64,000 nt of DNA from Phycisphaerales bacterium (GCA_047600535.1 JASGKR010000001.1:2719638-2783637); one strand, 5' to 3'. Counted from the stretch's first letter, positions 29,531 to 54,279 are shown. Made by a program: numbers and translations. Notes: generated by a model not told the origin, from the sequence alone.

Positions 29531-29962
29531 CACAGACGCGGCGCACGGAGCCGCCAACCGGAAGAGAAGAGAAGGGCGCGCGTCTTCGCCCGGAGGGCGC
29601 CACGCCGTTTGCCACGAGTGACCGCAGTCGAGCGCAGCGAGACAAGGGAACCCGTGGACGGCAAACCGACATCCACCTCTTCTCTTCCTTTGTCTCCCGG
29701 CCCGGCAGGGCCGACGTGAGTGCTCGCCAGCCCTACCGGGCTGAAGATAAAGAGAATAACCCGGTACCACGGGTTCCCTCACTTCGTTCAGTCACCCGTG
29801 GCAAACAACGCATGCCCTCCGGACGAAAGACAACGGCTCTCTCGCTCGCTATGCCTCGACACGTGGGGGCTCAGATGCTCCGAGCTACGTGAAGCGGGGC
29901 CGCCCCCACGTCATCCCCAAATCGCCTTTGCCATGGCGTCGTTCCTGTAAACTCAGCGCACG

Positions 29963-30556
29963 GTGAAGAAGCCCCGCTCATCACTCAAGATCGGCCGCAA
30001 GCGCCGAGCCGCGGGCTGGACGCTGCTCGCCCTCGGCCTGTTCGTGGCGGGTGTGTGGGTAGCAAGCGGGCGGTGGATGTTCTGCGTGAAGCTTGCGGAC
30101 CCATATCGGTATTACACGCTGAACGGAGGTCATGCCGAGATGCGAAGCTGGCGCGACACGCTTGGATGGCGCGAAGAGATGGACCATCCATGGAAAATCA
30201 TCGCGTTCAGCCGCGGCCGTTTTGATCTCGCCTGGAAGGCGAGCAGAGAATCGGATGCGAACAACTACGCCTTGGAGCCGGGTGCATGCACGTATGTCGA
30301 CCTGTCCGTGCTCACGTACTTCAACACAAAGGGCGCCCCGCCGAGCAGAGGAATCTGGCGAGTGACTCCGTGGCCTCTCCCTCTCTTCCTCTGGATTCTC
30401 GCCGCGCTGCTGCTCCGCTCTGGCATCCTCGCGCATCGGAGAGCCATGACAGGCAACTGCACCAAGTGCGGCTACTCGCTCACGGGTCTTGCAACAGAGA
30501 CTGCATGCCCAGAGTGTGGAGCCAACCACGAACGCCGGCCCACGCCGAGCACCTGA
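29963..30556 (+). CDS. hypothetical membrane protein with C-terminal zinc-ribbon (CTKCGYSL...CPECG)
   Basis: There is an N-terminal TM segment. The C-terminal CxxC-x15-CxxC motif is present. Confidence 0.5.
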   Translation: MKKPRSSLKIGRKRRAAGWTLLALGLFVAGVWVASGRWMFCVKLADPYRYYTLNGGHAEMRSWRDTLGWREEMDHPWKIIAFSRGRFDLAWKASRESDANNYALEPGACTYVDLSVLTYFNTKGAPPSRGIWRVTPWPLPLFLWILAALLLRSGILAHRRAMTGNCTKCGYSLTGLATETACPECGANHERRPTPST

Positions 30557-30980
30557 AACAAGTGACTTACAACCCTAACGCCGTAAGGATCGAACGGGCT
30601 CCGCACGCCTCCAGCACCCCAAAATCGCCTGTTTTCAAGGGTTATCCACATCCCCCGTTCGTCAGTAAATCCTCACGTTGACGCCAAAAACACGTCGTGG
30701 TATATATATCGCCATGATTCGGAGCGACTACATCGTTCTGGCTCACTCGCAGCTCAACGGCAACAACGCCCGCTCGGTCCGCCTTTCCCGGACCGGCCAG
30801 CCGACATGAGAAGCAGCTCTGTGCGCACGCACAGGGCGCCGTGTCGCCGTCACGTCCCGCTCTCCCGAGCCCGCGTGACCCAACCCCTCTAACTCAATAA
30901 CCAACCGGCTTCCCGCGCGAGCTCTCCGTTTGCGCTCCACAAGCCCTCCTCTTACGCACCCCCTCACACAAGGGACACGC

Positions 30981-33020
30981 ATGTACCTCGTCCTCGCCAT
31001 CCTCGCCGTACCTCTCGCCCTCCTCCTCATGTTCTGGCTCATGGGCTTCAGGTACGTCCCCAACAACCGCGTCGGCATCATCGAAAAACGCTTCTCAGGC
31101 AAAGGCTCAGTCCGTGGCGGCTTCATCGCACTCCACGGTGAGGCCGGTTTCCAGCCGCGCATCCTCCGCGGCGGTCTGCACTGGCTCATGCCGTTCCAAT
31201 ACATCGTTCACCGCGTCCACCTTGTCACCATCCCGCAGGGCAAGCTCGGCTACGTCTTCGCCCGCGACGGCCGCCCGCTCGAACCACGCCAATCGCTCGG
31301 TTCAAACATCGCCGCCAACAGCTTTGAAGACGTCGAGGCCTTCCTCGCCGCCGGCGGTCAGCGTGGCCCGCAGCGCCAGATCCTGCGCGAAGGCACCTAC
31401 GCCATCAACCTCGCTCAGTTCGTCGTCATCACCGAGCAGCAGCTCTACTTCCTGCGCCTCGACCGCGACGACCTCGCCACCTTTGGCGAGATGACCAAGG
31501 TCGTCCGCCACCGCGGCGGCTTCGAGCCCATCGTGATCAAGGACGGCCAAGACCTGATCGGCGTCGTCACCGTCCACGACGGACCATCGCTCGACGACGG
31601 CCAGATCATCGCCCCCGTCGTAGGTGCAGGAGGTGGTGAGGCCGGCACGACGCACAGCAACTTCCAGGACCCCGAGGCGTTCCTCGCCGCCGGTGGCCGC
31701 CGCGGCCGCCAGTTGCAGGTGCTCGTCGAAGGCACGTACTACATCAACCGCCTCTTTGCCACCGTCGAGTTTGAGCCCAAGACGATCATCGACGTCGGCA
31801 ACGTCGGCGTGGTGATCTCCTACATCGGCGTCCGCGGCGAAGACCTCAGCGGCGCCGACTACTCGCACGGCGAGCTGGTCGAAGTCGGCCAGCGCGGCGT
31901 GTGGAAGGACGCCCTCCTCCCCGGCAAGTACGCGTTCAACACCTACGCCGGCAAGGTCGTGGTCGTCCCCACCACCAACTTCATGCTCAAGTGGATCCGC
32001 AGCGAAGTCGGCGAGCACAACTTCGATCAGAACTTGTCAGAGGTGTCGCTCATCACCAAGGACGCCTTCGAGCCCAGCCTGCCGCTGAGCGTGGTCGTGC
32101 ACATCGACTACCGCAAGGCCCCGCTGGTCATCCAGCGCTTCGGCGACATCCGCCGACTGGTCGAGCAGACCCTCGACCCGATGGTCGCCGCCTACTTCAA
32201 GAACGTCGCCCAGAACCGTACGCTCATCCAGCTCCTGCAGGACCGCGCGGAGATCCAGTCCCACGCCGCGGCGGAGATGCGCACCAAGTTCTCCCACTAC
32301 AACCTCGAGCTCGAGGAGGTGCTGATCGGCACGCCTAAGAGTCCGACCAACGGCAACGGGCGTCTGGAGCAGATCCTCGAACAGCTCCGCCTTCGCCAGA
32401 TCGCGCAGGAGCAGATCGAGACCTACGCCCAGCAGGAAAAGGCCGCGACGCAGGAGCGCGAGCTCCGGCAGGCCGAGGCCTTCGCCGCCCAGCAGACCAA
32501 GCTCACCGAGAGCGAGCTGGCGATCACCGTGCAGACCAACCAGGGCAAGGCCGAATACCAGCGTGCCCTGCAGCAGGCCTCGCAGATCAAGGCGATGGCC
32601 GAGGCAGACGCCAACCGCGTCCGCGTGATGGCCGAGGCGGAAGCGGAACGTAACGCGCGAGTCGGCGTCGCCCAGGCGATCGCCGTCGAGGAGCAGGTCC
32701 GCGCCTACGGCGGCCCCGTGTATCAGCTCACCCAGAGCGTGCTGAATCGCTTCGCCGAGGCGATTCAGACATCCAAAGTCGACGTTGTTCCGAAGATCGT
32801 GATCTCCAACGGCAACGGTGGAAACGGCGGCGCGAACGGAACCGGCGGCGCCGCCAACAACGGTGGCGGCGGCGGTGGCGCCAACGGCAACATCATGGAA
32901 GCCCTGCTCACCATGATGCTCTCCGAGAAGATGCTCTCGCTCACCAGCGATGCCTCGCGCAATCCGCCGCGACCGGAAGTCGAGAAGCTCCGTGCGGAGA
33001 TCACCGCGCGAACCAACTGA
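30981..33020 (+). CDS. SPFH/band-7 (flotillin-like) domain protein with long coiled coil and Gly/Asn-rich C-terminal region
   Basis: An N-terminal TM helix is followed by the band-7 core (RVGIIEKRF...). The coiled coil is Q/E/A-rich. The low-complexity region is NGNGGNGGANGTGGAANNGGGGGGANGN. Confidence 0.75.
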   Translation: MYLVLAILAVPLALLLMFWLMGFRYVPNNRVGIIEKRFSGKGSVRGGFIALHGEAGFQPRILRGGLHWLMPFQYIVHRVHLVTIPQGKLGYVFARDGRPLEPRQSLGSNIAANSFEDVEAFLAAGGQRGPQRQILREGTYAINLAQFVVITEQQLYFLRLDRDDLATFGEMTKVVRHRGGFEPIVIKDGQDLIGVVTVHDGPSLDDGQIIAPVVGAGGGEAGTTHSNFQDPEAFLAAGGRRGRQLQVLVEGTYYINRLFATVEFEPKTIIDVGNVGVVISYIGVRGEDLSGADYSHGELVEVGQRGVWKDALLPGKYAFNTYAGKVVVVPTTNFMLKWIRSEVGEHNFDQNLSEVSLITKDAFEPSLPLSVVVHIDYRKAPLVIQRFGDIRRLVEQTLDPMVAAYFKNVAQNRTLIQLLQDRAEIQSHAAAEMRTKFSHYNLELEEVLIGTPKSPTNGNGRLEQILEQLRLRQIAQEQIETYAQQEKAATQERELRQAEAFAAQQTKLTESELAITVQTNQGKAEYQRALQQASQIKAMAEADANRVRVMAEAEAERNARVGVAQAIAVEEQVRAYGGPVYQLTQSVLNRFAEAIQTSKVDVVPKIVISNGNGGNGGANGTGGAANNGGGGGGANGNIMEALLTMMLSEKMLSLTSDASRNPPRPEVEKLRAEITARTN

Positions 33021-33059
33021 TGCGGGCTGTTTGAGTCGGTAAGTGATCGAAGGGGGGAC

Positions 33060-33116
33060 GCGGCGGGTAAGGCTCACGAGGGGGTGAGCCCACTACCCGC
33101 CGCTTTCCTTTTCTCC
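33060..33116. terminator. nested-hairpin bidirectional terminator between convergent genes
   Basis: The outer stem gcggcgggta/tacccgccgc encloses the inner stem ggctcac-gaggggg-gtgagcc. tttccttttctcc follows. Confidence 0.6.
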
Positions 33117-33155
33117 TCTTCCTTCGATTGACCGCCCCAGCGAAGCAATGGCTTT

Positions 33156-33197
33156 CCGACTTCCGACTTCCGACTTCCGACTTCCGACTTCCGACTC
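33156..33197. repeat. heptanucleotide microsatellite (ccgactt)x5 plus ccgactc
   Basis: Seen directly in the sequence. The repeat abuts the stop codon of the corrected 33196-34262 gene. Confidence 0.85.
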
Positions 33198-34262
33198 AAT
33201 TCTCCCCACACCCATCAAAGAACCCGGTGATGAACGCGATGAAATCGTTGTTGTCGAGCTGACCGTCCGAGCCCGGCTGACCTCCCGCGCGCCCACGTCC
33301 GCCCGGGTGTCGGCAGCGAAGTACCGGTTGATGTACGCGATGAAGTCGTTGTTGTCGAGCGCACTGTCCGCGCCGTCGACGCCGCCCGCACTCCCCACGT
33401 CGCTCGGCCCGCAGGGGATGTAGATCGTCCGCCCCAGCCAGCGGTTGTTCACGATCCCCATCGACGGGCTGTTGATCGTGTACCCCTCAGGCAGCACGAA
33501 GACCAGCGGCTCACCGAAGCTCGGCCCGTTGGTCGCGATGCTCGCGTTCATGTGCCAGCTCGCCCCGCCCGGCGAGTGGTCATACGCGCCGCCGAACGCG
33601 ACGCCCGACGGATTCCGCGGCGTGCCGAGCGACATCGAAACGGTAAACGGCTGGTTCACCGGAACCAGCGCGCCGACGATGCTGACGGTTCCGCTGGTCG
33701 ATGACGGCGGGTTCCCGCCGCCGATGTGCGCCGAGAACGACCCGCCCTGACCGGCAATCGAGGCGCTCGCGTTGATCGTGTACCCCGCGGAGATGACGTT
33801 CTCGCCCGATGCACCGACGATCCCAATCACGCTGAACGACGCCGACACGGGAATCGTGTTCTCAAACTGCCCCGTCCCCGTGTACGAGATCACCACGTCG
33901 CTCCACGAAGCGCTCGACGTGCCCGACCCCGCCCACGTCACGCCGTCATACCGACCCGGGAGACTCGCAATCGCATGGCGGGATCCGGCGCCGTTGGCGG
34001 AGTGCTCAATCAGCCCACGGTCGACCGACGACATGAACGACTCGTGCGCCGCGCTCCCGTTCGCCGAGACCGAACCGCACGTCGAGATCCCCAGCATCGG
34101 AAACTGGCTTGTCCGGTTATCGCCGTGGAACGTCTGCGTCCCGCCTCCGTAGAAGACGGCCGCTCCGATGTTCGTCGAGTACGTCCCCTGCGCAAACGCC
34201 GCCGCTCCAGACCCCGCCACGCCCAGCCCCCCTACCACGGCCGCCAACATCGTCGCTCGCAT
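33196..34262 (-). pseudogene. secreted protein with duplicated DNNDFIA(Y/F)I dockerin-like C-terminal module ending FFDGC. A single-nt frameshift between the two repeats makes it a pseudogene or assembly error.
   Basis: The signal peptide is MRATMLAAVVGGLGVAGSGAAAFAQG. The first repeat is GSAGGVDGADSALDNNDFIAYINRYF. Shifting +1 near 33265 restores AGGQPGSDGQLDNNDFIAFITGFFDGCGEN-stop. The annotated ORF 33093-34493 reads through into junk. Confidence 0.5.
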
Positions 34263-34575
34263 GAGAACCTCCTTCGTGAAGTACTCAGGACTAGCGGCCG
34301 CTCGCACCAGCTTGGACACCTCCCCACCAAATATCAGGCGGCCCGCACACAGAGCCCCGACCGGCAGGAAGGGGACAGCGCCCTTCCTCCCACACCGCAG
34401 GCAGGCTTCACAAACAGACCTCCACCCCCCCACCCCCCCGCCTCCCCCACTCCCCAGCAACTCCACCCGCGGGAAAAACCCTGTTCTGACCACAACCGCC
34501 GTCTAGACGTCAACCAAGCACTCCCTCACCGGTGCCCAGTTGTCAGAGACCCGCGGCGCTGTAGAGTCACAACCC

Positions 34576-35880
34576 ATGCAACACGATCTCGACCGTCGTT
34601 TCCTTCTCGGTGGCCTCGCCGGCGCTGCCGGTGTCTCCGCTCTGGCCGCCATGGCCAAGGGCGGCCCGATCACCCCCCCCGCCGGGGCCGTCGCCTCTAC
34701 CGGCAAGCCCCTCTCAGACGTCGAGCCTCGCACAGCCATCAACGCGACCAACACCCCCGCGGCCAACGGTTTCACTCACGTCATCAGCACCAACGGCTCC
34801 TACTACCTCACCGCCGACGTCATCGCCACCGGCGGCAGCAACGGCATCCTCATCAACGCGCCGCGTGTCACCCTCGACCTCAACGGCTTCTCCGTCGTCA
34901 ACAGCAGCACCGGCTTGTTCGGCATCCTGCTCAATGGTAACGACCAGAACGCCGTGATCCGCAACGGCTCGATCTCGAGCTGGGGCCAGATCGGCATCGG
35001 CCACAACGGCGGAACCGCCCCCGCCATCCACCTGGAGAACCTCTTCCTCCGCAACTGCGTGCGCGGCATCCGCGTCACCGGCCCGCTTCGCGTCACCCAG
35101 TGCACCGCGCCAACTGCTCCGCCCTCGGCTTCGAGTGCATGAGCCCTCACGCCCTCTTTGAATCCTGCCTCGCCGAGGCCTGCACCGGCGCGGGCTTCTA
35201 CCTCAACCCTTACAGCGTGGCTCAAGGCTGCATCGCCAACACATGCGGCACCGGCTTCTTCGGTAACGACGGCAGCCGCCTTATCGACTGCTCCGCCACC
35301 GCCAACACCACTCTCGGCTTCGACCTCGGCTCCGGCGTCTTCCTCCACCGCTGCACCGCTCGCGGCAACGGCACAACCAACGCCGCCGGAAACGCCAACA
35401 TCCGCGCAGGCTTCCGAACCCACATCGCCCAATGCCTGGTCGACGCCGGCGCTTACCGCGGCATCGTGACCGCCCACGCCTGCATCATCGCGGAAAACCT
35501 CGTCAGCACAACCTCGGGCATCGGCATCGAGGCCGGCGACGGCTGCACGATCGAGCGCAACAACGTCTCCAACAACACCGGCAACGGCGTGCAAATCGCC
35601 AACAGCTGCCGCGTCCACGCCAACATCATCGACTACCACCCCACCGCCGGCACCTCGGCCATCCGCTGCCTCGGCAGCAACAACTCGATCGAGCAGAACA
35701 ACCTCACCCGCGGCTCCGATCGGTGTCGACATGACCAACTCGACCAACAACGTCATCCTCAACAACCGCGTCTCCTGCACCACGCCCTTCGCCGTCAACG
35801 CCGGCGGCAACTGGTACCCGCAGATCTCCGTCGCCAACACCGGCTCGGCAGCCACGCCGTTCTCCAACGTGGTGTATTAG
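34576..35880 (+). pseudogene. Tat-signal beta-helix protein, paralog C, with two internal frameshifts (~35110 and ~35715)
   Basis: The N-terminus is MQHDLDRRFLLGGLAGAAGVSALAAMAKGGPITPPAGAVASTGKPLSDVEPRTAINATNTP. The reading frame hops through ORFs 34540-35142 and 35100-35945 and then a third frame. That third frame ends ...NNRVSCTTPFAVNAGGNWYPQISVANTGSAATPFSNVVY, which is homologous to the paralog F C-terminus. Confidence 0.55.
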
Positions 35881-36047
35881 CCGTGGCTTGGACGCCGCCA
35901 GGCTCGGCTTTGCGAGCCTGGCGCGTTGATCGCCCGCTGCAGTAACAGCAACAACCAAGCACTTTCCGCACGCTCACTCACGATTCACTGGCCGTGCGAA
36001 CCCGCCTTCGCCGCCGGTCTGAACACCGCAATCGAATACCTACACAC

Positions 36048-36992
36048 ATGACCACTCACGCCAACGACACCTCTTCCCCCACCGACAACCTCGATCGCCG
36101 CTTCCTACTGGGCGGACTCGCCGGCGCCGCGGGTATCGCCGCGCTCGCCGCCATGACGCGCCCCGCCTCCGCCGGCCCGCTCAACCCGCCCGCGGGTCCG
36201 ATCGCGGGAACCAGCCACACGCTCGACGAGATCTACAACAAGATCCCCGCCTCAGGCACTGGCGCAGGCCGCATCCCCCTCGTCGGCGGCAACCAGCCGA
36301 TCACGATCACCCAATCCGGCTCATACATCCTCACCGGCAACCTCGCCAATACCGGCAGTAACCCTCTCGCCGTCTTCGGCGCCAACATCGACATCGACCT
36401 CAACGGCTACTCCGTCTCTGGCGAACTCGAACTCTCCGCGATCGTGGTTCAGGGCCGCAACATCCGCATCCGCAACGGCATCATCCGCGAGTCCTACTAC
36501 GGCGTCGGCCTCACCGGCATCTCCGGCGTCGTGCTCGAGGACCTCATCATCGATCGCTGCCGCTTCGCCGGCATCGCCGCCAACGGCGGCACGATGCAGT
36601 CCATCAACATCCGTCGCTGCAACGTTTTCGATACCGGCGCCATCTCCCTGCCCACCGACCCGCCCTCGGGAAGCTACCGCGGCATCTACCTCAACGGTTC
36701 CGGCCACACTGTCACCGACTGCACCGTCCAGCGCATCATCCCGCCCGTCGGCGCCGCCTTCCGCGGCATCGAACTCACTGGTTCCGGCCACGTCGTCGCA
36801 CGCTGCATGGTCTCCAGCAACGCCGCTCTTGCAGGTATCGGCATCCTCTGCAGCGGCGGCACCTACCGCGATAACACCGTCGTCAACTTCACCACGCCCT
36901 ACAGCGGCGCCAGACAACGGCGGCGGCAACGCCTGACCGCAATGTCGCCCAGCGGCGATAACGCCCGCAACGCCGCCGATCCCAGGCTGTGA
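36048..36992 (+). CDS. Tat-signal beta-helix protein, paralog D. A C-terminal frameshift is likely, with the true stop near 36936.
   Basis: The N-terminus is MTTHANDTSSPTDNLDRRFLLGGLAGAAGIAALAAMTRPASAGPLNPPAGPIAGTSHTLDEIYNKIP. The family end motif YRDNTVVNFTTPYSG continues as DNGGGNA-stop in the +1 frame. Confidence 0.6.
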   Translation: MTTHANDTSSPTDNLDRRFLLGGLAGAAGIAALAAMTRPASAGPLNPPAGPIAGTSHTLDEIYNKIPASGTGAGRIPLVGGNQPITITQSGSYILTGNLANTGSNPLAVFGANIDIDLNGYSVSGELELSAIVVQGRNIRIRNGIIRESYYGVGLTGISGVVLEDLIIDRCRFAGIAANGGTMQSINIRRCNVFDTGAISLPTDPPSGSYRGIYLNGSGHTVTDCTVQRIIPPVGAAFRGIELTGSGHVVARCMVSSNAALAGIGILCSGGTYRDNTVVNFTTPYSGARQRRRQRLTAMSPSGDNARNAADPRL

Positions 36993-37073
36993 GCACGGCC
37001 GCGCAGGCTTATCCGACCTGCCGAGGGTCCGCAACAAGCTTGTACCTAGGCGATTTGCCCGTACACTGAGGGC

Positions 37074-38384
37074 ATGACCAACGACCTCGATCGTCGGTTC
37101 CTTCTGGGGGGCCTCGCAGGCGCAGCCGGTATTTCTGCGCTCGCGGCAATGGCAAAGGGAGCCGGCCCCCTCAACCCGCCCGCCGGAGCCGTCGCTTCCA
37201 CCGCCAAACCACTGGCCGATCTCGAGCCCCGCACTGCGATCAACGCCGCAAACACCCCCGGCGACGCCACCGCTGCGTTCATCATCAGCCAGCCCGGAAG
37301 TTACTACCTCACCGCCAACACGCCGGTTCCGCCCGGCGGCCAGGACACCATCCGCATCACCGCCAACGGCGGCACGGTGATCATCGACCTTAACGGCTTC
37401 ACGATCGCAAGCGCCAACAACGCCGTCCGCATCGCCGCCGCCGCCACTTCCGACGTCACCGTCCAGAACGGCGTCATCGTCAACTGCAATAACGCCGTCA
37501 CCAGCGCCGCAGTTGTCGCTCTGAACGCGCGCCTCCTCGTGTCGAACGTCCGATTCTCCAACTGCCTGGCGTGCATCTCCACGCAGTCGCCTGTCGAGGT
37601 TCGTAATTGCTCGCTCAATAACTCGTCGGGCTTGGGCACCCCCGTCGGCATCAACGGCGGCGCTCGCAGCCTCGTCGAATCCTGCCTGGTCGCCACGCCC
37701 GGCTCCAACAACATCATGCTGGGCGCCCAATCGATCGTCCGCAACTGCATCGTCAACGGCTCAAGCGGCTACTCCGTCGACGTCGGCGGCGGCTCGTTCG
37801 TCGACTCGTGCACGCTCAGCAACGGCAACACCGGCATCCGCATCGGCCAGGTGAGTGGAGGCCCCGGCGGCGCCGTGCGCAACTGCACGCTCTCAGCCTT
37901 CGCCATCGCCGGCATCAACGCCGTCGGCTCGACGATCGAAGGAAACACCATCATCACTCCCCAGACCGGCACGCCCCGCGGCATCGAGTCACAGGGCAAC
38001 TGCGACATCGTCGGCAACCGCATCGACGGCTCGGCCGGCGCCGGAGTCGGCATCCGCCTCTACAGCGGCCGCAACACCGTCCGCGCCAACGGCGTGAGCG
38101 GATTCAGCGGCACAAACGGCATCGGCATCTCGATCTTCCCCACCGCCGGCACCGGCAACGCGGGCAACAAGATCGTCGACAACGAGCTCGTCAGCAACTG
38201 GCTCCACATCGGCGCCAACGCGTTCTACAACTTCATCGCCCGCAACACCATGTCCTTCGTCGGCGCGGGCGGCAACTTCAACAACGCCGGCAATAACGCC
38301 TACGGCCCCTTCGTCCTCTGCAACAACACCGACTTGTCGACCGTCGCAGGCACCACCCACCCGCACGCCAACCTCGTCTACTGA
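37074..38384 (+). CDS. Tat-signal beta-helix protein, paralog E (full length, 436 aa)
   Basis: The N-terminus is MTNDLDRRFLLGGLAGAAGISALAAMAKGAGPLNPPAGAVASTAKPLADLEPRTAINAANTPGDATAAFIISQPGSYYLTAN...IIDLNGFTIASAN. Many N/G/S/T-rich beta-helix rungs follow. Confidence 0.7.
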   Translation: MTNDLDRRFLLGGLAGAAGISALAAMAKGAGPLNPPAGAVASTAKPLADLEPRTAINAANTPGDATAAFIISQPGSYYLTANTPVPPGGQDTIRITANGGTVIIDLNGFTIASANNAVRIAAAATSDVTVQNGVIVNCNNAVTSAAVVALNARLLVSNVRFSNCLACISTQSPVEVRNCSLNNSSGLGTPVGINGGARSLVESCLVATPGSNNIMLGAQSIVRNCIVNGSSGYSVDVGGGSFVDSCTLSNGNTGIRIGQVSGGPGGAVRNCTLSAFAIAGINAVGSTIEGNTIITPQTGTPRGIESQGNCDIVGNRIDGSAGAGVGIRLYSGRNTVRANGVSGFSGTNGIGISIFPTAGTGNAGNKIVDNELVSNWLHIGANAFYNFIARNTMSFVGAGGNFNNAGNNAYGPFVLCNNTDLSTVAGTTHPHANLVY

Positions 38385-38486
38385 GGCTCGAGCCGACCGC
38401 CATCGTTCACCGAGAGAATGTGCCTAGAGCACACCGCTCGGAAGCAAAGGGCTGGTCATCCCGTGGTTTGTCTGTAGACTGCCCAA

Positions 38487-39656
38487 ATGACCAACGACCT
38501 CGACCGTCGCTTCCTCCTCGGCGGCCTCGCCGGCGCTGCTGGCGTCTCCGCCCTTGCTGCGATGACCAAAGCCGGCCCGCTGAACCCTCCCGCCGGCGCC
38601 CTTGTCTCAACCGGCAAGACGCTCACCGACGTCGAGCCGCGCACCGCCGTCAACGCCCAGAACACGCCGCCAGTCGGCAACTACCTCTTTTCGCTCCCAA
38701 CCGCGGGCTCGTACTACCTCACCGGCAACATCTCCGTACCGGCAAACCGCACCGCGATCCTCATGCCCGAGGGGGCCACGCTCGACCTCAACGGCTTCAC
38801 CATCGCCGGCTCCGGCGCCGCTTCCAACGGCGTAGAGGCCCGCAACGCCTGCACCGTCCGCAACGGCTCGATCAATAACGTCGGCAGCGCGGTTCTCGTC
38901 GGCGTCGCTCCAAGCCTCTCCGTCACCGTCGAAGACCTGCGCGTCACCGGCTTCCTGTCACGCGGCATCGATATCGGCGGCCCCTCGGTCGTGCGCCGCT
39001 GCACGGTCAGCGGCCAGGGAATCACCGCGATCGAGCTCCAAGGCGACCACGGCGTCGTCGAAGACTGCGTCGTCAGCAATCTCGTCGCCGGCGGCGGCGG
39101 TGCGATTTACCTCAACTCCTACAGCATCGCCCGCCGCTGCCACGTCAGCCGCTGCACCGTCGGCATCCGCCTCGGCTTCGGCTCCGTGGCCGACGAGTGC
39201 GTCGCCGTCACCTGCGGCCACACCGGCTTCCAGGCCGGCCAGCGCGCCGTCGTGCAGCGTTGCTCGGCGATCAATATCACCGTCGGCGCGGCAGGCAACC
39301 CCGGCGTCGGCATCGACCTCACCGACGGCGCCGAGGCCGTCGGCTGCTCCACCCTCAGCTGCTACACCGGCATCCGAGGCTCGACCGGCGCCCGCATTAT
39401 CGAGTGCACCGCCGACGCCTGCGCGTCCGCTGCCGTTCGCCTCACCGGTCCGGGCAACACAATCGACTCCTGCCGGCTGAACCGCAGCAGCACCGGTGTC
39501 GACATGACCAATGTCGGCGGTAACTTCGTTCAGAAGTGCGTCCTGATGGGCAACGGCACCGCGTTCGCCGTCAACGTCGGCGGCAATTGGTACCCCAACG
39601 TCACGCTGGGCGCCACCAACTCCGCTACCAACCCCCTCGCAAGCGTCGTCGGCTGA
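38487..39656 (+). CDS. Tat-signal beta-helix protein, paralog F (389 aa)
   Basis: The 5' coding DNA is near-identical to paralogs E and G (atgaccaacgacctcgaYcgtcg...). The protein has the same N-module and a beta-helix body. Confidence 0.7.
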   Translation: MTNDLDRRFLLGGLAGAAGVSALAAMTKAGPLNPPAGALVSTGKTLTDVEPRTAVNAQNTPPVGNYLFSLPTAGSYYLTGNISVPANRTAILMPEGATLDLNGFTIAGSGAASNGVEARNACTVRNGSINNVGSAVLVGVAPSLSVTVEDLRVTGFLSRGIDIGGPSVVRRCTVSGQGITAIELQGDHGVVEDCVVSNLVAGGGGAIYLNSYSIARRCHVSRCTVGIRLGFGSVADECVAVTCGHTGFQAGQRAVVQRCSAINITVGAAGNPGVGIDLTDGAEAVGCSTLSCYTGIRGSTGARIIECTADACASAAVRLTGPGNTIDSCRLNRSSTGVDMTNVGGNFVQKCVLMGNGTAFAVNVGGNWYPNVTLGATNSATNPLASVVG

Positions 39657-39695
39657 ACGACTGGCCTCAGGCCCAATGCGCAGTATCCTGTCGCC

Positions 39696-40748
39696 ATGAC
39701 CAACGACCTCGATCGTCGCTTTCTCCTCGGCGGCCTCGCCGGCGCTGCCGGCGTCTCCGCCCTCGCCGCAATGACCAGCCGCGCACACGCGGGCCCGCTC
39801 AACCCGCCCGCCGGCGCCGTCGCCGCCACCGGCAAAACGCTCCCCGAAATCGAGCCGCGCACCCCGATCACCGACGCCAACACCCCGGGCACGGCCAACG
39901 TCCTCTTCCGCATCACCCAGCCGGGCTCGTACTACCTGACCGGCAACATTCTGGGCTTTCCCGGCAAGAGCGGCGTGCTCATCGCCGCCGACAACGTCAC
40001 CCTCGACCTCAACGGCTTCGCGCTCCTGGGCGTGCCCGGCAGCGGCGACGGCATCGCCGGCAACGACGTCTCCAACGTAACCGTGCTCAACGGCGTCTGC
40101 AAGGGCTGGGGCGCCACGGGCGTGTCGTTCTACGGCTCCGCCGTGCAGGGAATCCGCATCCACGGCGTCACCGCGGCCAACAACGTCAACGGCATCTATG
40201 TAGACCGCCTGGCCGAGATCAGCGGGTGCATCGCGCTTAACAACACAGTCACCGGGATCGAAGCCGGCAACAGCTCCGTAGTCACCGGCTGCACCTGCTG
40301 CGGCAACGCCAATGGCATCCGCGTGGGAAACAACGCCTGGGTGGAGGGCAACACCGTCGCCGGCGCCGCCGCCTGGGCAGGCGAGGGGACCGGCCCAGGC
40401 GCGGAGGGCATCCGCGCACGCATCGCCAGCACGATCGTCGGCAACAACGTTCGCTCCTTCGCCATCGGCTACCGCCAGGCCGCCGCCGTCTCCGGAGAGT
40501 TCGGTCTCTGCCGCATCGAGAACAACCAGTGCCTCTCCTGCAACACCGCCTACAAGATTGAGGGAACGTCCAACATGCTCCGCAGCAACACCAGCGCACT
40601 GGCCGCCGCGGCCCACTTCAACATCGCCGCGAACAACATGGCAAAGGTCGTCGTCGCCACCATGAACGGCGCGGCCTTCACCAACACCGGCGGCACATCA
40701 ATCCTTCCCACCGGCGCAGACACAAACACAAACCTCATCCTGGCATAA
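39696..40748 (+). CDS. Tat-signal beta-helix protein, paralog G (350 aa)
   Basis: The N-terminus is MTNDLDRRFLLGGLAGAAGVSALAAMTSRAHAGPLNPPAGAVAATGKTLPEIEPRTPITDANTPG...SYYLTGNI...VTLDLNGFALLG. Confidence 0.7.
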   Translation: MTNDLDRRFLLGGLAGAAGVSALAAMTSRAHAGPLNPPAGAVAATGKTLPEIEPRTPITDANTPGTANVLFRITQPGSYYLTGNILGFPGKSGVLIAADNVTLDLNGFALLGVPGSGDGIAGNDVSNVTVLNGVCKGWGATGVSFYGSAVQGIRIHGVTAANNVNGIYVDRLAEISGCIALNNTVTGIEAGNSSVVTGCTCCGNANGIRVGNNAWVEGNTVAGAAAWAGEGTGPGAEGIRARIASTIVGNNVRSFAIGYRQAAAVSGEFGLCRIENNQCLSCNTAYKIEGTSNMLRSNTSALAAAAHFNIAANNMAKVVVATMNGAAFTNTGGTSILPTGADTNTNLILA

Positions 40749-40785
40749 AGCAAACCGCCCAACTCACCCTCACAAGCAAAGCAGC

Positions 40786-43092: not shown

Positions 43093-43160
43093 GCTGCGTA
43101 CTGCGTCTCCTAGCGTATTTTGACCTACAGCGACTGGTTCTGTGCCAACCACCTGCACCG

Positions 43161-44849: not shown

Positions 44850-45018
44850 GGTAAGCTCCTAGCGGCAGTTTACTTATTTGCCGCACACCTTTTAGGACGA
44901 TTTGTTCCGGCAAGCCGGCGGGGGAAGCACCGCCCAACCCTTTCCACTCCCCGTGCCGCCGCGCCGGCCGCTCTGGGACGGTCGGTGCTGCCTTCATGCT
45001 CGCGATTTAGACTATCCA

Positions 45019-45594: not shown

Positions 45595-45693
45595 TGCCTT
45601 AAAGGGGGCAGTCGGGGCCCTCCCCGACACTGCATCGCGCATTTCGCCTGCGATTTCCAAGTACACTCCGCCTGCACAAACCCCGCCGAGTCC

Positions 45694-45768
45694 CAAGGCG
45701 CAGCGCAGCCTCAGTAGCGCGTCTGGTTCGGGACCAGAAGGTCGGAGGTTCAAATCCTCCCACCCTGG
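45694..45768 (+). pseudogene. degenerate tRNA-Pro(CGG)-like element
   Basis: The anticodon arm is tctgg-TTCGGGA-ccaga and the T arm is ggagg-TTCAAAT-cctcc. A D arm gcgc/gcgc is present but the D loop lacks GG and U8 is absent. The acceptor stems pair at only 5 of 7 positions. Confidence 0.3.
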
Positions 45769-45838
45769 CTGCAGCGCAACCACACAGCGCGTTTGACTGG
45801 GGATCAAAAGGTCGTGGGTTCAAATCCCGCCACCACGA
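45765..45838 (+). pseudogene. degenerate tRNA-Pro(GGG)-like element, tandem to the previous one
   Basis: The anticodon arm is tttga-CTGGGGA-tcaaa. The variable loop is aggtc. The T arm is gtggg-TTCAAAT-cccgc. The acceptor pairs at 4 of 7 positions. The architecture is the same as the neighbouring element. Confidence 0.3.
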
Positions 45839-49107: not shown

Positions 49108-49344
49108 GTCGGCTCCTTGGTGACAAAGCGGCGGCGAGAAGATGCCGCCGGAGCCTACCGAGACGCCAATGCGATCACAACATCAAGCACAAGCGATGCG
49201 CCAAACTTGATGCAAGTACCGCGCAGCTTTTACAGGTTCTGCAACCGACTACATATCGCGAGACGCTCGAGAGTGCGGCGTGGATTGGTGTCGTCGATCA
49301 TCCGCGCCTGCCCGCTCTTTTCGTTTGAGCTCTCGCCGGCGGCC

Positions 49345-49827: not shown

Positions 49828-49959
49828 CGTTGCACTCCAGTGATCGCCTTTGGCGGCTCATCGTTGGCGCGAAATGAACAGAGCGTGAGTTGTGAGTGGC
49901 GAGTCGAATGCTCGCCGCTCGTCGTACGGCATACGCATCCCACCTCGTCCACCGACTGC

Positions 49960-51249
49960 TCATTTCACCCGGATCGCGCGACGAGCGAGCACTTTTCCGC
50001 CCGTACCGCTTACGTACCGCACCTCCGCCTCACCGACCTCGGCCGGGCACTTGACGTTCAGCGGCGAACCCGCGGTCGTGTTGGTGTACGCACCGTACTT
50101 CGCATCGGGCGTTCCCTTGGGCACGATGGTGATGTAGTCGCCCGCGTTGCTCGGACCCGTCCACTCGATCGAGACCGGCTTGCCCGCTTCGCTCTCATCC
50201 GGCGCGCTGAGCGTCACCGTCGCGGCGACGATCGTGATCGCCGTGCGAGCCAGCACGCGCCGGCCCTGTCCCGTTACGTAGCGCACCTCCGCTTTGCCCG
50301 CATCGATCGGCGCGGTGAGCTGTGTGGGAGAACCCTTCGACACGTCGACGTAGCTGGCGTACTGCGCATCGGGCGCATCGGCCGGCACAACCGTGATGTA
50401 GTCGCCCGCGTTGTTCGGGCCCGTCCAGGAGACCTCGAAGCGTGAACCCGCCACCGCGCGTTCCGGCGCATTCACCTTCACAGCCGCGGCCACCACCTTG
50501 ATTGCCGCGCGCGCGAGCACAGTGCGGACACCCCCCGCTCCAGGCCCCGCAGCAACATACCGCAGTTCCGCATCACCCTCCTGTGTCGGCGCGGTGAGCG
50601 TGAGCTCCGCGCCCTTGGCGGTCTGCTCATAGCTGCCGTACTGCTCATCGCCCGCGCCCTTGGCGACGATCGTCACATAGTCGCCCGCGTTGTTGGGACC
50701 CGTCCACCGCACCTTCAGCGGTGATCCGATCACGACCTCCGCCGGCCCGGCGACTGTCGCCGACACCGGCTGCACCGCGATCCGCGCACGCCCCAACACC
50801 GTGCGCGAAGGACCGGTCACATAACGAAGCTCATACGCGCCCGGCTCCATCGGCGCGGTGAGCCGCAACGACGGCCCCTCCGACGTCTGCCGGTATGACT
50901 TCGACTCGCTGGCCGCAGCGTCTGCACGCACGATGGTCACAAAGTCACCCGCGTTGTCTGGACCAGTCCAGGCAACTGCGAACTCGGCACCCGCGGACAC
51001 AGCCTCCGGCGCCGTCAACGTCGCGGCCGTCAACCGCTCAGCGACTGGAGCCGCACCGGACGCCGGCGCCGATGACGCCGCATTTGAAGCAGGCGGCGCG
51101 GGTAGCTTCGCGTTGCTCTTCGTCAGCCCCACGCTTCCATTCTGCGGCTTGCATCCCTTCAGCAAGAGAAGGAGCACAACGACGATCACCACGAGCATCG
51201 AGAGGACGATCGCGACAGTCTTACGGCGGCGGTTCGTAGAGTCGGGCAT
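49960..51249 (-). CDS. membrane-anchored protein with four tandem ~95-aa repeats
   Basis: The N-terminal TM segment is VAIVLSMLVVIVVVLLLLL. Four repeats have the pattern WTGPNNAGDY(I/V)TIV...Y..T..G.....AP...G.AE(L/V)RYV....VLAR..I.V. Confidence 0.6.
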   Translation of the reverse strand: MPDSTNRRRKTVAIVLSMLVVIVVVLLLLLKGCKPQNGSVGLTKSNAKLPAPPASNAASSAPASGAAPVAERLTAATLTAPEAVSAGAEFAVAWTGPDNAGDFVTIVRADAAASESKSYRQTSEGPSLRLTAPMEPGAYELRYVTGPSRTVLGRARIAVQPVSATVAGPAEVVIGSPLKVRWTGPNNAGDYVTIVAKGAGDEQYGSYEQTAKGAELTLTAPTQEGDAELRYVAAGPGAGGVRTVLARAAIKVVAAAVKVNAPERAVAGSRFEVSWTGPNNAGDYITVVPADAPDAQYASYVDVSKGSPTQLTAPIDAGKAEVRYVTGQGRRVLARTAITIVAATVTLSAPDESEAGKPVSIEWTGPSNAGDYITIVPKGTPDAKYGAYTNTTAGSPLNVKCPAEVGEAEVRYVSGTGGKVLARRAIRVK

Positions 51250-51547
51250 CGAGCGGAGTCTATGAATGGCGGTGAAGTGGCGGGTCGCAAGTCGCTCGTC
51301 GCGAGGCACGCGAGCTGCACGCTTTTCGATCTTGGTACTCGGCACTCGAGGCTCTGCTGAATTTGGCCACGTGGCCATTTGACTACTTGAGCTTGGGTAA
51401 TCTGGCGACTACCCGCCATCCCGGCATTTTTCCCCCCTTGCATCTCCTCCCCTCGCAAGGTACTCTCAGATCACGCCGCGGCGCGGGGTGCAATCCGCCC
51501 GTGCGGCACAACTACATACCTCCATACCGGAGGAGAGAGAGAAGAGC

Positions 51548-52207
51548 ATGCGCTACACGCTGTCTGCGTTGTCCATCGCCGCCATCACCGCCGCGGCATC
51601 CGCTCAAACCTGGAACTTCGACGCCCCGGTCTTCACCTTCGGTGAGTCGACCCCGCTGCTCGACCGCGCGGCCAACATTCCCGGCTCCACGCCCGGCATG
51701 ACCGCATCGTTCGACTCCCTGTTCGGCGCTCTGGCGATCAGCGACTCCGCCGATTTCCAACCCAACAGCCTGATGCAGGGCCAGTATCTCTTCGCACCCG
51801 GCGACGGCGTCAACGGCCCGCTGGCGCTCCTGACCATCACGTTCAGCCAGCCGGTGACCTCGGCGAGCTTCGACTTCGCCGTCAACGGCTTCGAGCCGGG
51901 CTGGAACCTCATCCTCTTCGCCGATCCCGATTTCGGCGCCGTTGATGAGGTCCCCGTGTATTCGCTCTACGCGGCCGGCGAGGTCGACACGACCGGCTTC
52001 GGCGCGTGGGGCGGCCACGTTGACTTCACCAGCGCCACGCCTTTCACCACGATCGTCATGACCGCGATCTTCGGTGACCCCACCGTCGGCACGCCCCCTC
52101 AGGCCACGCAGTTCGCGATCGACAACCTCACCGTTACCCCGACGCCCGGTGCCGCCGCGGCGTTCGGCCTCGCCGGCGCGGCTTCGCTGCGTCGCCGTCG
52201 TCGCTGA
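51548..52207 (+). CDS. secreted protein with PTPGA...RRRR C-terminal sorting signal
   Basis: The signal peptide is MRYTLSALSIAAITAAASA. The C-terminus is TVTPTPGAAAAFGLAGAASLRRRRR. The body resembles the 11707-12518 protein. Confidence 0.65.
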   Translation: MRYTLSALSIAAITAAASAQTWNFDAPVFTFGESTPLLDRAANIPGSTPGMTASFDSLFGALAISDSADFQPNSLMQGQYLFAPGDGVNGPLALLTITFSQPVTSASFDFAVNGFEPGWNLILFADPDFGAVDEVPVYSLYAAGEVDTTGFGAWGGHVDFTSATPFTTIVMTAIFGDPTVGTPPQATQFAIDNLTVTPTPGAAAAFGLAGAASLRRRRR

Positions 52208-52233
52208 TTCGCATCATCATCTGACCAGTGCAT

Positions 52234-52268
52234 AAAAGCCGAGGGCCGTAAGGCCCCGGCTTCTTTTG
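52234..52268 (+). terminator. rho-independent terminator
   Basis: The hairpin aaaagccgagggcc-gtaa-ggccccggc is followed by ttcttttg. Confidence 0.5.
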
Positions 52269-52316
52269 CGCCCCCGCTACAGCCGCGCTCCTGGCACACC
52301 CACGCGCCACGTTACT

Positions 52317-52691
52317 ATGGCACACGCCATGTACCGCATCCCCAAAGACCTCGACCTCAGCGCCGTCGTCGGCGAGTTCACCACGCAGGTGTGCGTCGGC
52401 CAGTTTGACATGCAGTTCTCGTTCGGGCGCGTGCGGTTCGCAGTCACGTCGCCCATCGAGCTGTTGCGCGGCGGCAACGTTGTCGCTCGCTGGCAAGAAG
52501 GAACATGGCCCGATGCGGGGTTCTTCGACGTCATGAACTCCGACGTCCGCCGCTGCGAGGTCGTCACCGATCGCTTGATCGTGCTGGAATTTGAGAACGG
52601 GCTCGAGATGCACCTGAAGGATGACTCGGACATGCACGAGTGCATACAGATCTGGCTCGACGATGGTCCGTTGCCGTGGGTCATCATCTGA
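52317..52691 (+). CDS. hypothetical protein
   Basis: A 124-aa ORF runs from MAHAMYRIPKD. No motifs were recognised. Confidence 0.4.
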   Translation: MAHAMYRIPKDLDLSAVVGEFTTQVCVGQFDMQFSFGRVRFAVTSPIELLRGGNVVARWQEGTWPDAGFFDVMNSDVRRCEVVTDRLIVLEFENGLEMHLKDDSDMHECIQIWLDDGPLPWVII

Positions 52692-52789
52692 AGAGGCACC
52701 GGAGTGCCACACCACATGGCGTGAGCGAGAGTGCTCCCCTCCCCACCCCCCACCCCCCACGCTCCCCGCTCCCCGCTCCCCACCGCGAC

Positions 52790-53221
52790 TCACGCCAGCG
52801 GGCCCGACCACACGAAGAGCGGCACTGCACCGCCCGCGTGCTGCCGGACTTTCTTTGCCGCGGCGGAACTTCGCGGGTCTTCGCATTCTGCGAACCCGCC
52901 GCCTCCCTTATGCGAGCCCCACATGACGATGCGGTCGGCGAAGATTTCGTCGAGGAGGCCCACGACGCTCGCGACGATCGCTTTGTCACGCTCGGTGCCG
53001 CGCAGCTTGTCGTTGTAGTTGGCGTGGTGTGTGTGCGTGAACTTGCCGACGTACACGATCAGCTCGGTCTCGCCGTCTTCGGTGATCACGATGTCGCCGA
53101 CGTCGGGGTGCGCTGCGGGGAATATGGCACTGCGGTCGCCGCTGCTGCTTTGTGTGGTGCGCAGGCCGCGGGCGGGGTGCCGCTGGGTGAGTTCGTTGAT
53201 GAGCAAGTCGAAGAGTGACAT
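52790..53221 (-). CDS. hypothetical protein
   Basis: An ORF runs from MSLFDLLINELTQRHPARGL (~143 aa). The upstream in-frame extension in the ORF track is likely non-coding. Confidence 0.4.
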   Translation of the reverse strand: MSLFDLLINELTQRHPARGLRTTQSSSGDRSAIFPAAHPDVGDIVITEDGETELIVYVGKFTHTHHANYNDKLRGTERDKAIVASVVGLLDEIFADRIVMWGSHKGGGGFAECEDPRSSAAAKKVRQHAGGAVPLFVWSGPLA

Positions 53222-53333
53222 GGGCGGTTGGTTGTAGGGCGGGCCACGCCGATGTGCGATTGGCCTTGAGGCACGCCGCCCGCAGAGCTGCCGGTGAGCG
53301 GGTGCTTGGAGGGTTCTTTTCGGCTGGAGGCTG

Positions 53334-53476
53334 CGTTGAAGAGGAGGGGAGGAGGCGGGTTTGGGGATGACGTGGGGGCGGAGGCGCGTCTGACGGCCGG
53401 GGATCTGGGAGCCCCCACGTGAGGAGGCGTGGGGACTTCGATGTACTGCCAATCAGTGGCTTGGCGATGGTCTGTG
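53334..53476. repeat. ~144-bp dispersed repeat, copy 1, containing the gacgtgggggc-N31-gcccccacgtga palindrome
   Basis: It is ~90% identical to 54136-54279. The ORF track also shows this as near-identical minus-strand peptides (IAKPLIGSTSKSP...PPDAPPPPRHPQ). Confidence 0.8.
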
Positions 53477-53507
53477 CATCCTGACGCAAGTCGCCGTTCT
53501 GTTGTCA

Positions 53508-54020
53508 TCACGGCGTTCGCCGCGGCATCAGACAGTCGAAGTGCTTGCAGACGTCGATCTCGTCCATCTCCGCGAATGAGACGTTGAGCTGCAATCCAGG
53601 CGGGATGCACGCCGCCAGCGCGGACGACAGGTCTCTTGCGTGCAATGCCAGCGCAGGGATCGCGTCGCGCTGGTACACGCTGTCGGACACGGAGGAACCC
53701 CAGTCGTAGACGTACAGGCCGCGGCGGGCCAGCCCGATGACCGACGGTGCCTTTGCGCTCATGGGATGCAGCCAGCGAAGTCCTCCCACCGGGAGTGCCG
53801 CGGCGCGTTCTTCGATCTCCAGCATCAGCGGGTGCTGCTGGACGATGCTTGGAATCGCACCCCATCCTGCAGTGGTAAAGAGCCCGACAAAGCCCTTGGC
53901 ATCGAGCGCCGGCCAGGCGTGGTCGATGCCGAAGTATTCGCTGTAGGGGCCGTGTTCTTTGCGGTTCACGGTTGAGCGTACGTGGCGGAGTGGGCCTAGA
54001 GCGTCCGCGCCGTCTGGCAT
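53508..54020 (-). CDS. hypothetical protein flanked by the two repeat copies
   Basis: The ORF is 170 aa. No motifs were recognised. Confidence 0.4.
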   Translation of the reverse strand: MPDGADALGPLRHVRSTVNRKEHGPYSEYFGIDHAWPALDAKGFVGLFTTAGWGAIPSIVQQHPLMLEIEERAAALPVGGLRWLHPMSAKAPSVIGLARRGLYVYDWGSSVSDSVYQRDAIPALALHARDLSSALAACIPPGLQLNVSFAEMDEIDVCKHFDCLMPRRTP

Positions 54021-54135
54021 CGCGCAAACGGCTCTTCAGTTTGGAGAGATCCAGCTCGCCGACGATCGTTTTCGGTGAAGCATTGATTCCACGCCCTCGG
54101 TCCTCCGGAGACAGACATCCATTCGACCGGGGGCG

Positions 54136-54279
54136 GCGTTAAGAGGGAGGAGAGAAGGCGGATTTGGGGATGACGTGGGGGCGGAGGCGCGTCTGGTGGC
54201 CGGGCACGTAGGAGCCCCCACGTGAGAAAGCTTGGGGACTTCGATGTGCTGCCAATCAGTGGCTTGGCGATGGTCTGTG
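54136..54279. repeat. ~144-bp dispersed repeat, copy 2
   Basis: See copy 1. It shares the gatgacgtgggggcggaggcgcgtctg...ggagcccccacgtgag...ctgccaatcagtggcttggcgatggtctgtg core. Confidence 0.8.

Follow-up and report, generated by a model that had tools for sequence, protein, structure and literature searches.

Palindromic sites and repeat units in the window

The stretch analysed here (the window) comprises 64,000 nucleotides of a Phycisphaerales genome (GCA_047600535.1, JASGKR010000001.1:2719638-2783637; locus tags QM783_) with a G+C content of 64%. It carries several copies of a palindrome with 10-nt arms, which probably form the stems of a previously undescribed family of oriented, interspersed intergenic repeats of about 82 nt, found in one Phycisphaerales lineage and similar in kind to repetitive extragenic palindromic (REP) sequences. 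A first-pass annotation of the same DNA had reported three such palindromes with equal 31-nt spacing and variable spacers, and had read them as promoter-proximal operators of a dimeric or tetrameric regulator or, alternatively, as a structured RNA stem.

A search with the pattern ACGTGGGGGC-N(25-40)-GCCCCCACGT returned exactly three matches in the window, at 29861-29911, 53370-53420 and 54173-54223, each with a spacer of 31 nt. The triplet is thereby confirmed, and none of 100 dinucleotide-preserving shuffles of the window matched the paired pattern; the third site, previously placed at ~54170-54220, moves by 3 nt. The lone 10-mer, with one mismatch allowed, occurred 12 times in the window against 8.6 expected and is thus not enriched; therefore the signal resides in the paired arrangement and not in the word. 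The distances noted earlier from the sites to the downstream open reading frames (ORFs) are correct, at 52 nt (29963), 149 nt (53221) and 153 nt (54020), and in the sense of its downstream gene each site reads CACGTGGGGGCTC...CCGCCCCCACGTCATCCCCAAAYC. A 158-nt direct repeat (53319-53476 and 54122-54279, 87% identical) encloses sites 2 and 3, to which site 1 is similar solely after reverse-complementing. The copies of the element and the features most closely connected to them are as follows:

29067..29148, plus strand: fourth, diverged element copy (subfamily B type), found with the covariance model (CM) R1 and missed by the first-pass annotation
29847..29928, plus strand: element copy 1 (site 1), found by exact pattern match, profile and CM
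29963..30556, plus strand: QM783_13255, protein with two transmembrane segments and the zinc ribbon CTKCGYSLTGLATETACPECG (from the translation; 100% match to NCBI QM783_13255)
53319..53476, minus strand: 158-nt local repeat unit enclosing copy 2, 87% identical to the second unit
53353..53434, minus strand: element copy 2 (site 2), arms 53370-53379 and 53411-53420
54122..54279, minus strand: second 158-nt local repeat unit, enclosing copy 3 (88% over a BLAST block spanning -56 to +101 from the stem start)
54156..54237, minus strand: element copy 3 (site 3), arms 54173-54182 and 54214-54223

Copy 1 consists of a 5' flank (29847-29860), arms at 29861-29870 and 29902-29911 enclosing the 31-nt loop, and the tail CATCCCCAAATCGCCTT. 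It matched the family profile with an nhmmer E-value of 2.4e-16 and scored 72.7 bits in the sense and 21.2 bits in the antisense direction with CM R1; the corresponding values were 1.2e-11, 64.3 and 19.3 for copy 2, and 1.2e-16, 83.4 and 24.6 for copy 3. The fourth copy, with arms AGCTCCGGGC (29081-29090) and GCCCCGAGCT (29122-29131) and likewise a 31-nt loop, reached 24.8 bits with CM R1 (E ~3e-5 over the whole window, filters off); it differs from the canonical arms by three compensatory pairs and has a single C.C mismatch, at stem position 6. The 158-nt units hold about 42 nt of additional 5' sequence, including CCATCGCCAAGCCACTGATTGGCAG, which is common to the surroundings of copies 2 and 3 only, being found nowhere else in the window and in 0 of 112 loci. 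The window copies represent a divergent sub-type with the tail CATCCCCAAAYC, seen also in the related locus L008 (related loci are referred to by L numbers throughout).

A dispersed and oriented family in one Phycisphaerales lineage

The pattern was scanned across 185,579 species-representative genomes with N=16-46, yielding at least 107 loci. Among the matches listed, every one with N=31 fell in four Phycisphaerales metagenome-assembled genomes (MAGs), namely CAYOGE01, JAUXUZ01, JALHOJ01 and DASPMT01, which contain in addition at least two matches with N=32 and at least one with N=33. In each of CAYOGE01 and JAUXUZ01 the copies number at least 10, and at least ~30 intact copies are present across the four; the window belongs to a fifth MAG. 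The matches listed from Actinomycetes and other taxa had N=16-24 or formed families of their own. In one sense the enrichment check proposed with the operator reading came out positive: the motif is enriched across one lineage and the spacing recurs, a pattern in keeping with a dispersed repeat.

When oriented, all Phycisphaerales copies have a 5' flank and a 3' tail in common. The alignment of 29 sequences gave, from flank to tail, the consensus CCCTGTGCTSCCTC, ACGTGGGGGC, TCCTGTGCGTCCTGCCACCAGAACCGTCCAC, GCCCCCACGT, TATCAAAAAAACTGCCT; in short form this is CCCTGTGCTSCCTC, ACGTGGGGGC, a 31-nt C-rich loop, GCCCCCACGT and YATCAAAAAAACTGCCT. The unit of ~82 nt accordingly comprises a 14-nt 5' flank, a 10-bp stem, a conserved C-rich loop of 31 nt and a 17-nt A-rich tail. 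A profile hidden Markov model (HMM) detected the window copies with E-values of 1e-11 to 1e-16 in the sense direction, against 8-11 bits in antisense, and unrelated hairpins with identical arms obtained 15-17 bits from the family profile. These low scores for antisense sites and for same-arm hairpins serve as an internal control, and show that the similarity extends beyond the arms alone. Across model searches, the window sites scored 43-83 bits in sense versus 8-25 in antisense, and with the related loci included the ranges were 43-105 and 8-25 bits.

The edges of the unit are sharp. Information content jumps at -14 from the stem and fades after +17, and, counted from the stem start, pairwise BLAST blocks between loci have either their left limit at -16 to -7 or their right limit at +67 to +69. 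No terminal inverted repeats (TIRs) were found: neither of the ends CCCTGTGCTSCCTC and AAACTGCCT is an inverted form of the other, and the sole inverted repeat is internal. Likewise, no target-site duplication (TSD) was detected, the longest word common to both flanks averaging 3.28 nt as compared with 3.26 nt in mismatched flank pairs. Nothing in the window reached the gathering threshold of any Rfam model, and nothing was returned at E<=10 for 52600-54500 (copies 2 and 3) or for a canonical copy in L104; viral contigs gave no match to the element, and a full-text literature search on the 10-mer and on Phycisphaerae repeats retrieved nothing relevant. The element is thus multi-copy in the lineage, oriented and intergenic, and has a conserved loop.

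These data also account for the equal spacing of the three sites. Their spacers, described earlier as variable, all align to the conserved family loop, with sites 2 and 3 in addition part of the 158-nt repeat. As loops of 32 and 33 nt exist, 31 nt is no geometric requirement; the sites have this spacing in common because they are homologous copies of one repeat family with a conserved loop.

Copies are retained at orthologous positions in different genomes, and decayed, truncated and interrupted copies exist as well. The 3' arm is missing from L080 1608, L080 2349 and L019 5466. All orthologous loci recovered carry the element, the loci having been gathered by its presence.

A second dispersed repeat of ~80 nt, with the core TTCRTGCGCTCCGCTCCYGAA, was observed in the related MAGs and not in the window:

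L007 1727-1747, L041 1421-1441, L077 4718-4738, L087 1451-1471, L104 3146-3166 and L111 ~8590-8615: TTCRTGCGCTCCGCTCCYGAA repeat

In L104 and L111 this repeat sits within the 3' arm of the hairpin element, as if targeting it. It is present in L007 and missing at the orthologous spot of L088, L039 and L109, an insertion polymorphism with an empty site. Inverted low-complexity GAGTGCTGAGTCNTGAGT repeats occur at 8562-8688 of the window (5 matches versus 0.02 expected), and the same motif follows the element tail in L060, L110 and L114.

Stem structure and constraint on the arms

Single copies were predicted to fold into a 10-bp stem with a mostly open loop at -24 to -29 kcal/mol, with fold z-scores from -0.7 to -3.3. 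RNAalifold returned the 10-bp helix only, with no structure inside the loop or linking it to the flank. The loop holds a second, directly oriented occurrence of the flank motif CTGTGCnnCCTC, but covariation of the two across copies is not convincing. Intact copies were collected by their arms and are consequently unable to show covariation in the stem. Diverged members were recovered by profile and CM searches, at 29081-29131 of the window, L060 1572, L114 4250, 5108 and 5227, and L068 6077. The arms are GGGTCTGGGC/GCCCCGACCC in the L060 copy, and GGGTCCGGCC/GGCCCGACCC in those at 4250 and 5227 of L114. In the alignment that includes the diverged copies, both partners have changed in five of the ten pairs (17 cells), and pairing is kept in 96% of cells; the covariation score was reached by 0 of 500 shuffles, and sliding the partner by 1-3 columns as a control gave 35-54% pairing. 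No G-U intermediates were seen among the stem variants. The 10-bp helix is maintained by compensatory changes in the diverged copies, which supports the earlier suggestion of a structured stem.

None of the six variant copies has a base pair at stem position 6, where C.C, T.C or A.C is found instead. Five of the six belong to what is here termed subfamily B, defined by TCYGG/CCCGA arms with a C.C or T.C mismatch at position 6. Its arms read GGGTCCGGSC/GSCCCGACCC, in the window in the form AGCTCCGGGC/GCCCCGAGCT, and its members are:

Window 29067-29148, plus strand: subfamily B copy
L060 1572-1677, minus strand: subfamily B copy
L114 4250-4355, plus strand: subfamily B copy
L114 5108-5213, minus strand: subfamily B copy, from the profile/CM search
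L114 5227-5332, plus strand: subfamily B copy

Within the canonical copies the arms are frozen while the loop drifts. L002 (CAYOGE01) and L033 (JAUXUZ01) are orthologous from the 5' edge of the element onwards, with 82% identity over 1.5 kb; between them, 7 of the 31 loop positions have changed (~77% identity), against none of the 20 arm bases. The same was observed for L007/L088/L039/L109 and for L077/L101. A metagenome scan keyed on loop and tail, with the arms left free, added little diversity, and the three contigs retrieved all had exact arms. Copies with one to three arm changes were essentially lacking from profile searches of ~240 kb of related sequence, though with arms drifting as fast as the loop they would be expected to outnumber perfect ones greatly; therefore the arm sequence itself is constrained within each subfamily. 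A constraint on the arm sequence, and not on pairing alone, points to recognition by a protein.

Genomic position

Gene contexts in the related loci were derived from crude, heuristic ORF calls based on G+C content at third codon positions (GC3). On this basis tandem genes flank ~18 copies (10 of them in sense and 8 in antisense), convergent genes 6 and divergent genes 0-1. By these crude calls, the element prefers gene 3' ends and is rare or absent between divergent genes. Both arrangements are seen in better-supported cases, in which the neighbour is a member of a recurrent family: in L001, L002 and L068_1067 a co-oriented gene ends with its stop codon 5-6 nt ahead of the element, and in L060, L087_2425 and L114_5108 the tail overlaps or touches the stop codon of the convergent gene. 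Robust cases were found in both orientations relative to the adjacent gene, with L001, L002 and L068 on one side and L060, L087, L007 and L088 on the other. Arrangements that abut stop codons are incompatible with an obligatory promoter-proximal operator or 5' leader. Synteny between loci often ends at the element.

All four window copies are upstream of, and co-oriented with, a gene. The genes downstream of the three palindromic sites are unrelated to one another, as are the genes flanked by copies 2 and 3. Neither a sigma-70-like promoter nor a U-tract terminator was called at the window sites. Inspection by eye led to the rejection of an extracytoplasmic function (ECF)-type promoter (GAAC-N14-CGTT), the spacing being too short, and of a sigma-54-type promoter (GG-N9-GC), where the spacing is wrong. 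A coding function was also rejected: ORFs running through the element (e.g. 52790-53452) are of low complexity, and loop-length changes of 1-2 nt as well as placement after stop codons oppose it. The small ORFs around the element copies at 52790-53221, 53508-54020 and 54383-55105 (all on the minus strand) gave no family. The 170-aa gene by copies 2 and 3 is an orphan whose sole match in 5.8 billion proteins is its own record, QM783_13365 (annotated with 153 aa).

Association with the CPECG gene family

An all-against-all comparison of the ORFs neighbouring the element gave one dominant cluster of 12 proteins, consisting of QM783_13255 and 11 proteins from other loci. They have a basic N-terminus, two transmembrane segments and a C-terminal CxxCGYxLxGL...CPECG zinc ribbon, and match no Pfam or NCBIfam family above the cut-off. 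In the 64-kb window, QM783_13255 is the sole CPECG gene by motif scan, lying 52 nt from site 1; at least 10 further paralogues are present on its 4.38-Mb contig. The paralogues, including QM783_12755, _17255, _17270, _19250, _19255 and _19265, form a lineage-specific, expanded family often arranged in tandem arrays.

The element is enriched beside genes of this membrane-protein family. A CPECG gene adjoins it in at least 10 of ~22 loci, and in a search starting from the genes, L111 and L114 were found to have elements ~110-260 nt from CPECG genes, L114 with a head-to-head element pair 14 nt apart beside tandem CPECG genes. Most copies, more than 20 of 33, have no adjoining CPECG gene. L001, L002 and L068_1067 share a DNA block, 72-74% identical, in which the final ~100 nt of the gene are followed by the element and which stops at the 3' edge of the latter. 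The syntenic pair L002/L033, which aligns from the 5' edge, has the upstream CPECG gene in L002 only.

A second family of recurrent neighbours comprises proteins of ~230-420 aa with an Fn3-like C-terminal half, most of them ending in ...LAA or ...IAA and none assigned to a Pfam family:

L007 156-1112, L033 5418-6122, L061 1825-3090, L067 4072-4533, L068 5040-5741 and L087 4304-5074: Fn3-like family

Other features of the window

A 33-nt motif containing CAGAGCCCCGACCGG is common to 34342-34374 (+) and 55244-55276 (-), with 88% complementarity, and L007, L088 and L039 have a similar sequence just past the stop of the 816-aa gene. The motif may represent a further small repeat or some terminator-like signal. 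Three tRNA matches were obtained, at 45694-45768, 45773-45830 and 60685-60758. The second, beginning 5 nt after the first, is restricted to model positions 9-63 (37.9 bits) and could represent a tRNA that is truncated or otherwise unusual. The regions 34540-40748 and 56397-59010 contain a paralogous array of beta-helix-type genes with repeated segments of 100-177 nt, together with a gene that has ~10 FDPDGDGP (FG-GAP-like) repeats.

Comparison with known classes of elements

REPs are units of 21-65 bp with a stem of ~8-15 bp and a 4-5-nt loop (PMC3733652, PMC3184786), and GTAG- and CGTC-tagged families have been described (Di Nocera et al. 2013, PMC3733652). Like REPs and bacterial interspersed mosaic elements (BIMEs), the present element is a G+C-rich stem-loop dispersed in intergenic DNA in tens of copies or more, and a lineage-specific family with subfamilies. 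It lies at gene 3' ends and between convergent genes, the positions typical of REPs, as far as the crude ORF calls go; it occurs occasionally in head-to-head pairs (L114), is an insertion target for other small elements, and has neither TIRs nor a TSD. Unlike REPs, it measures ~82 nt with a hairpin span of 51 nt and a conserved loop of 31-33 nt, thus exceeding the REP size range, and it has a perfect stem of invariant sequence and is tied to one gene family. As to the tag, the window copies read ...CCCACGTCATC, in which a CGTC straddles the end of the stem with three of its four bases paired; most members have CGTT, and GTAG does not occur. REPs are associated with a RAYT (Y1 transposase) gene flanked by the repeats; no such gene was linked to the present element, no search aimed at it having been made. 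Membership in the defined REP families was rejected, as size and loop do not fit and the tag does not fit cleanly.

With miniature inverted-repeat transposable elements (MITEs) and small dispersed elements such as Correia/NEMIS, ERIC, RPE and MIRU (reviewed by Delihas 2011, PMC3184786) the element has in common a length below 200 nt, a non-coding, dispersed nature, decayed copies and the capacity to provide neighbouring genes with a stop codon or with C-terminal residues, for which the tails in L087_2425 and L114_5108 are examples. Unlike in MITEs, the inverted repeat is internal, with conserved non-inverted ends outside it, there is no TSD, and no empty site was found among loci gathered by the presence of the element; with neither TIR nor TSD, a MITE was rejected. 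Similarities to integron attC sites are a palindrome with a centre of variable length at the 3' end of promoterless small genes, probable recognition as a folded single strand and, in subfamily B, a conserved unpaired base. Unlike attC, the element has no R''/R' cores, neither in the consensus nor in the window copies, and its loop sequence is conserved. Short arrays exist (window copies 2 and 3, L087, L114), most copies being solitary, and no integrase was noticed, although no systematic search was made. Lacking core sites, the element was rejected as an attC site. The lack of TIRs and TSDs is also a property of IS200/IS605 hairpins and their ORF-less derivatives, the palindrome-associated transposable elements (PATEs). 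IS200/IS605 elements have sequence-specific, irregular stems that are read on single-stranded DNA by a Y1 HUH transposase. They differ from the present element in having separate left-end and right-end hairpins instead of a single hairpin per unit; moreover, no conserved target tetranucleotide was demonstrated here, and no TnpA was noticed, again with no systematic search made. Intrinsic terminators consist of a G+C-rich stem with a 3-8-nt loop and a 3' U-tract; this class was rejected in view of the 31-nt loop, the A-/C-rich tail in sense and GAGG... on the other strand, and the lack of a terminator call.

Discussion

The conserved, oriented unit with its compensated stem, its dispersal between genes and its decayed copies make a REP-like family of interspersed hairpin repeats the probable identity of the palindromes. 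By analogy with REPs and BIMEs, the element would fold as a hairpin in a single strand, either transcript or single-stranded DNA, and the folded form would be recognized by a sequence-specific protein, which would explain both the frozen arms and the position-6 mismatch of subfamily B. Within a neighbouring mRNA, the 10-bp G+C stem could separate adjacent transcription units, either as a barrier or as a site of processing. Copies may furthermore serve as substrates for recombination, and recombination between them would explain why synteny often ends at the element. Given that TIRs and TSDs are lacking, spread would need an HUH-type mechanism or co-duplication with genes, rather than cut-and-paste transposition of the DDE type.

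Several observations weigh against such a REP-like repeat. No empty site was found for the hairpin element, so that its mobility is putative, and no transposase, recombinase or integrase was noticed in the loci examined, in which no systematic search was made. Invariant arms and copies kept at orthologous sites despite divergence at the species level are more reminiscent of a functional site under host selection than of selfish DNA, a strong tie to one gene family is not typical of REPs, and the conserved 31-nt loop is far larger than a REP loop. Some of the covarying hits came from a structure-aware model and few independent lineages are represented. The gene calls in the related loci are crude (GC3-based ORFs), and the counts from the genome scan are lower bounds, the position statistics deriving from the window and the related-MAG loci.

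The operator originally proposed would consist of two 10-bp half-sites lying 41 bp apart from centre to centre (~four helical turns), bound as duplex by a dimeric or tetrameric transcription factor that controls a regulon. Arms invariant across ~30 copies and their orthologues are what sequence-specific protein binding predicts, and the co-oriented upstream placement of all four window copies and the lack of G-U intermediates among the stem variants agree with it. However, conservation reaches beyond symmetric half-sites to an oriented 82-nt unit including loop and asymmetric tail, copies abut stop codons of convergent genes, where no promoter is located, and promoter-only divergent spacers hold few copies or none. 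Unrelated downstream genes, loops of 32 and 33 nt, and the asymmetric position-6 mismatch of subfamily B, which breaks the dyad symmetry that a homodimer would read, speak against it too; a promoter-proximal operator with fixed spacing is thus unsupported, and operators of any such kind appear rather improbable. A strand-specific structured RNA, be it a cis-regulatory leader, an element of a 3' untranslated region (3'-UTR) or a small RNA that uses its large C-rich loop to pair with Shine-Dalgarno regions or other G-rich targets, would be in line with the orientation of the element, its conserved, C-rich loop predicted to be unstructured, the covarying stem and the predicted hairpin stability of -24 to -29 kcal/mol. 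The tails of window copies 2 and 3 are CCUCC-rich, and several paralogues have kept the distance between the CPECG stop codon and the element. Yet no conserved promoter precedes the element, information content having fallen to background 15 nt before the stem, and no terminator follows it; robust cases in both orientations to the adjacent gene, the absence of an Rfam match and of G-U pairs among the variants, and single-copy fold z-scores of only -0.7 to -3.3 likewise argue against an RNA function, which we regard as unlikely.

The link to the CPECG family raises the question of a recombination site comparable to an integron attC site or cassette junction, at which gene-plus-hairpin units are shuffled, duplicated or inserted. 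The placement 5-6 nt after the CPECG stop in L001, L002 and L068_1067, with a common block that ends exactly at the 3' edge of the element, would suit such a site, as would the L002/L033 synteny that begins at its 5' edge with the CPECG gene upstream in L002 only. Elements interleave tandem CPECG arrays in L061 and L114, including the head-to-head pair, an orphan gene is enclosed in cassette fashion by window copies 2 and 3, and a conserved unpaired base as in subfamily B is frequent in folded recombination sites. Conversely, attC core sites (RYYYAAC/GTTRRRY) are missing, no integrase or recombinase was seen in the loci examined (no systematic search was made), and more than 20 of the 33 copies are not beside a CPECG gene. 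The common blocks, only 72-74% identical, correspond to old paralogues and not to recently moved cassettes, and the breaks in synteny are just as well accounted for by dispersed repeats undergoing homologous recombination, so that a recombination site of this type is improbable. Since neither the frozen arms nor the tie to one gene family is fully accounted for, the operator, RNA and cassette explanations each retain a degree of probability. Chance palindromes or ordinary intrinsic terminators can be given hardly any credence: G+C-rich hairpins are common in a genome of 64% G+C, and the same 10-mer arms with 16-24-nt spacers in Actinomycetes are probably terminators, but no shuffle matched the pattern, homology across the family extends outside the arms, and the element has a 31-nt loop and no U-tract.

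With a REP-like dispersed repeat as the preferred identity, the sites in the window are to be masked or labelled as members of a repeat family and not read as operators or riboswitch candidates; the CM from this work would find them. Phenomena of this general type are familiar from REPs, BIMEs and MITEs, and what is described here is a new family of a known kind of element, with no new mechanism demonstrated. To our knowledge, small dispersed hairpin repeats are barely documented in Planctomycetota and Phycisphaerae. There is a slim possibility that the element is a protein-recognized folded site coupled to the CPECG family, acting as a recombination junction or in post-transcriptional control and thereby driving expansion, shuffling or differential expression of the tandem arrays; if true, this coupling would constitute a new kind of gene-family-linked cassette system without integron hallmarks. 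In combination, the frozen arms with a drifting loop, the compensated subfamily, the conserved mismatch and the expanding gene family make the element a tractable case for studying how repeats persist and whether they are put to use by their hosts.

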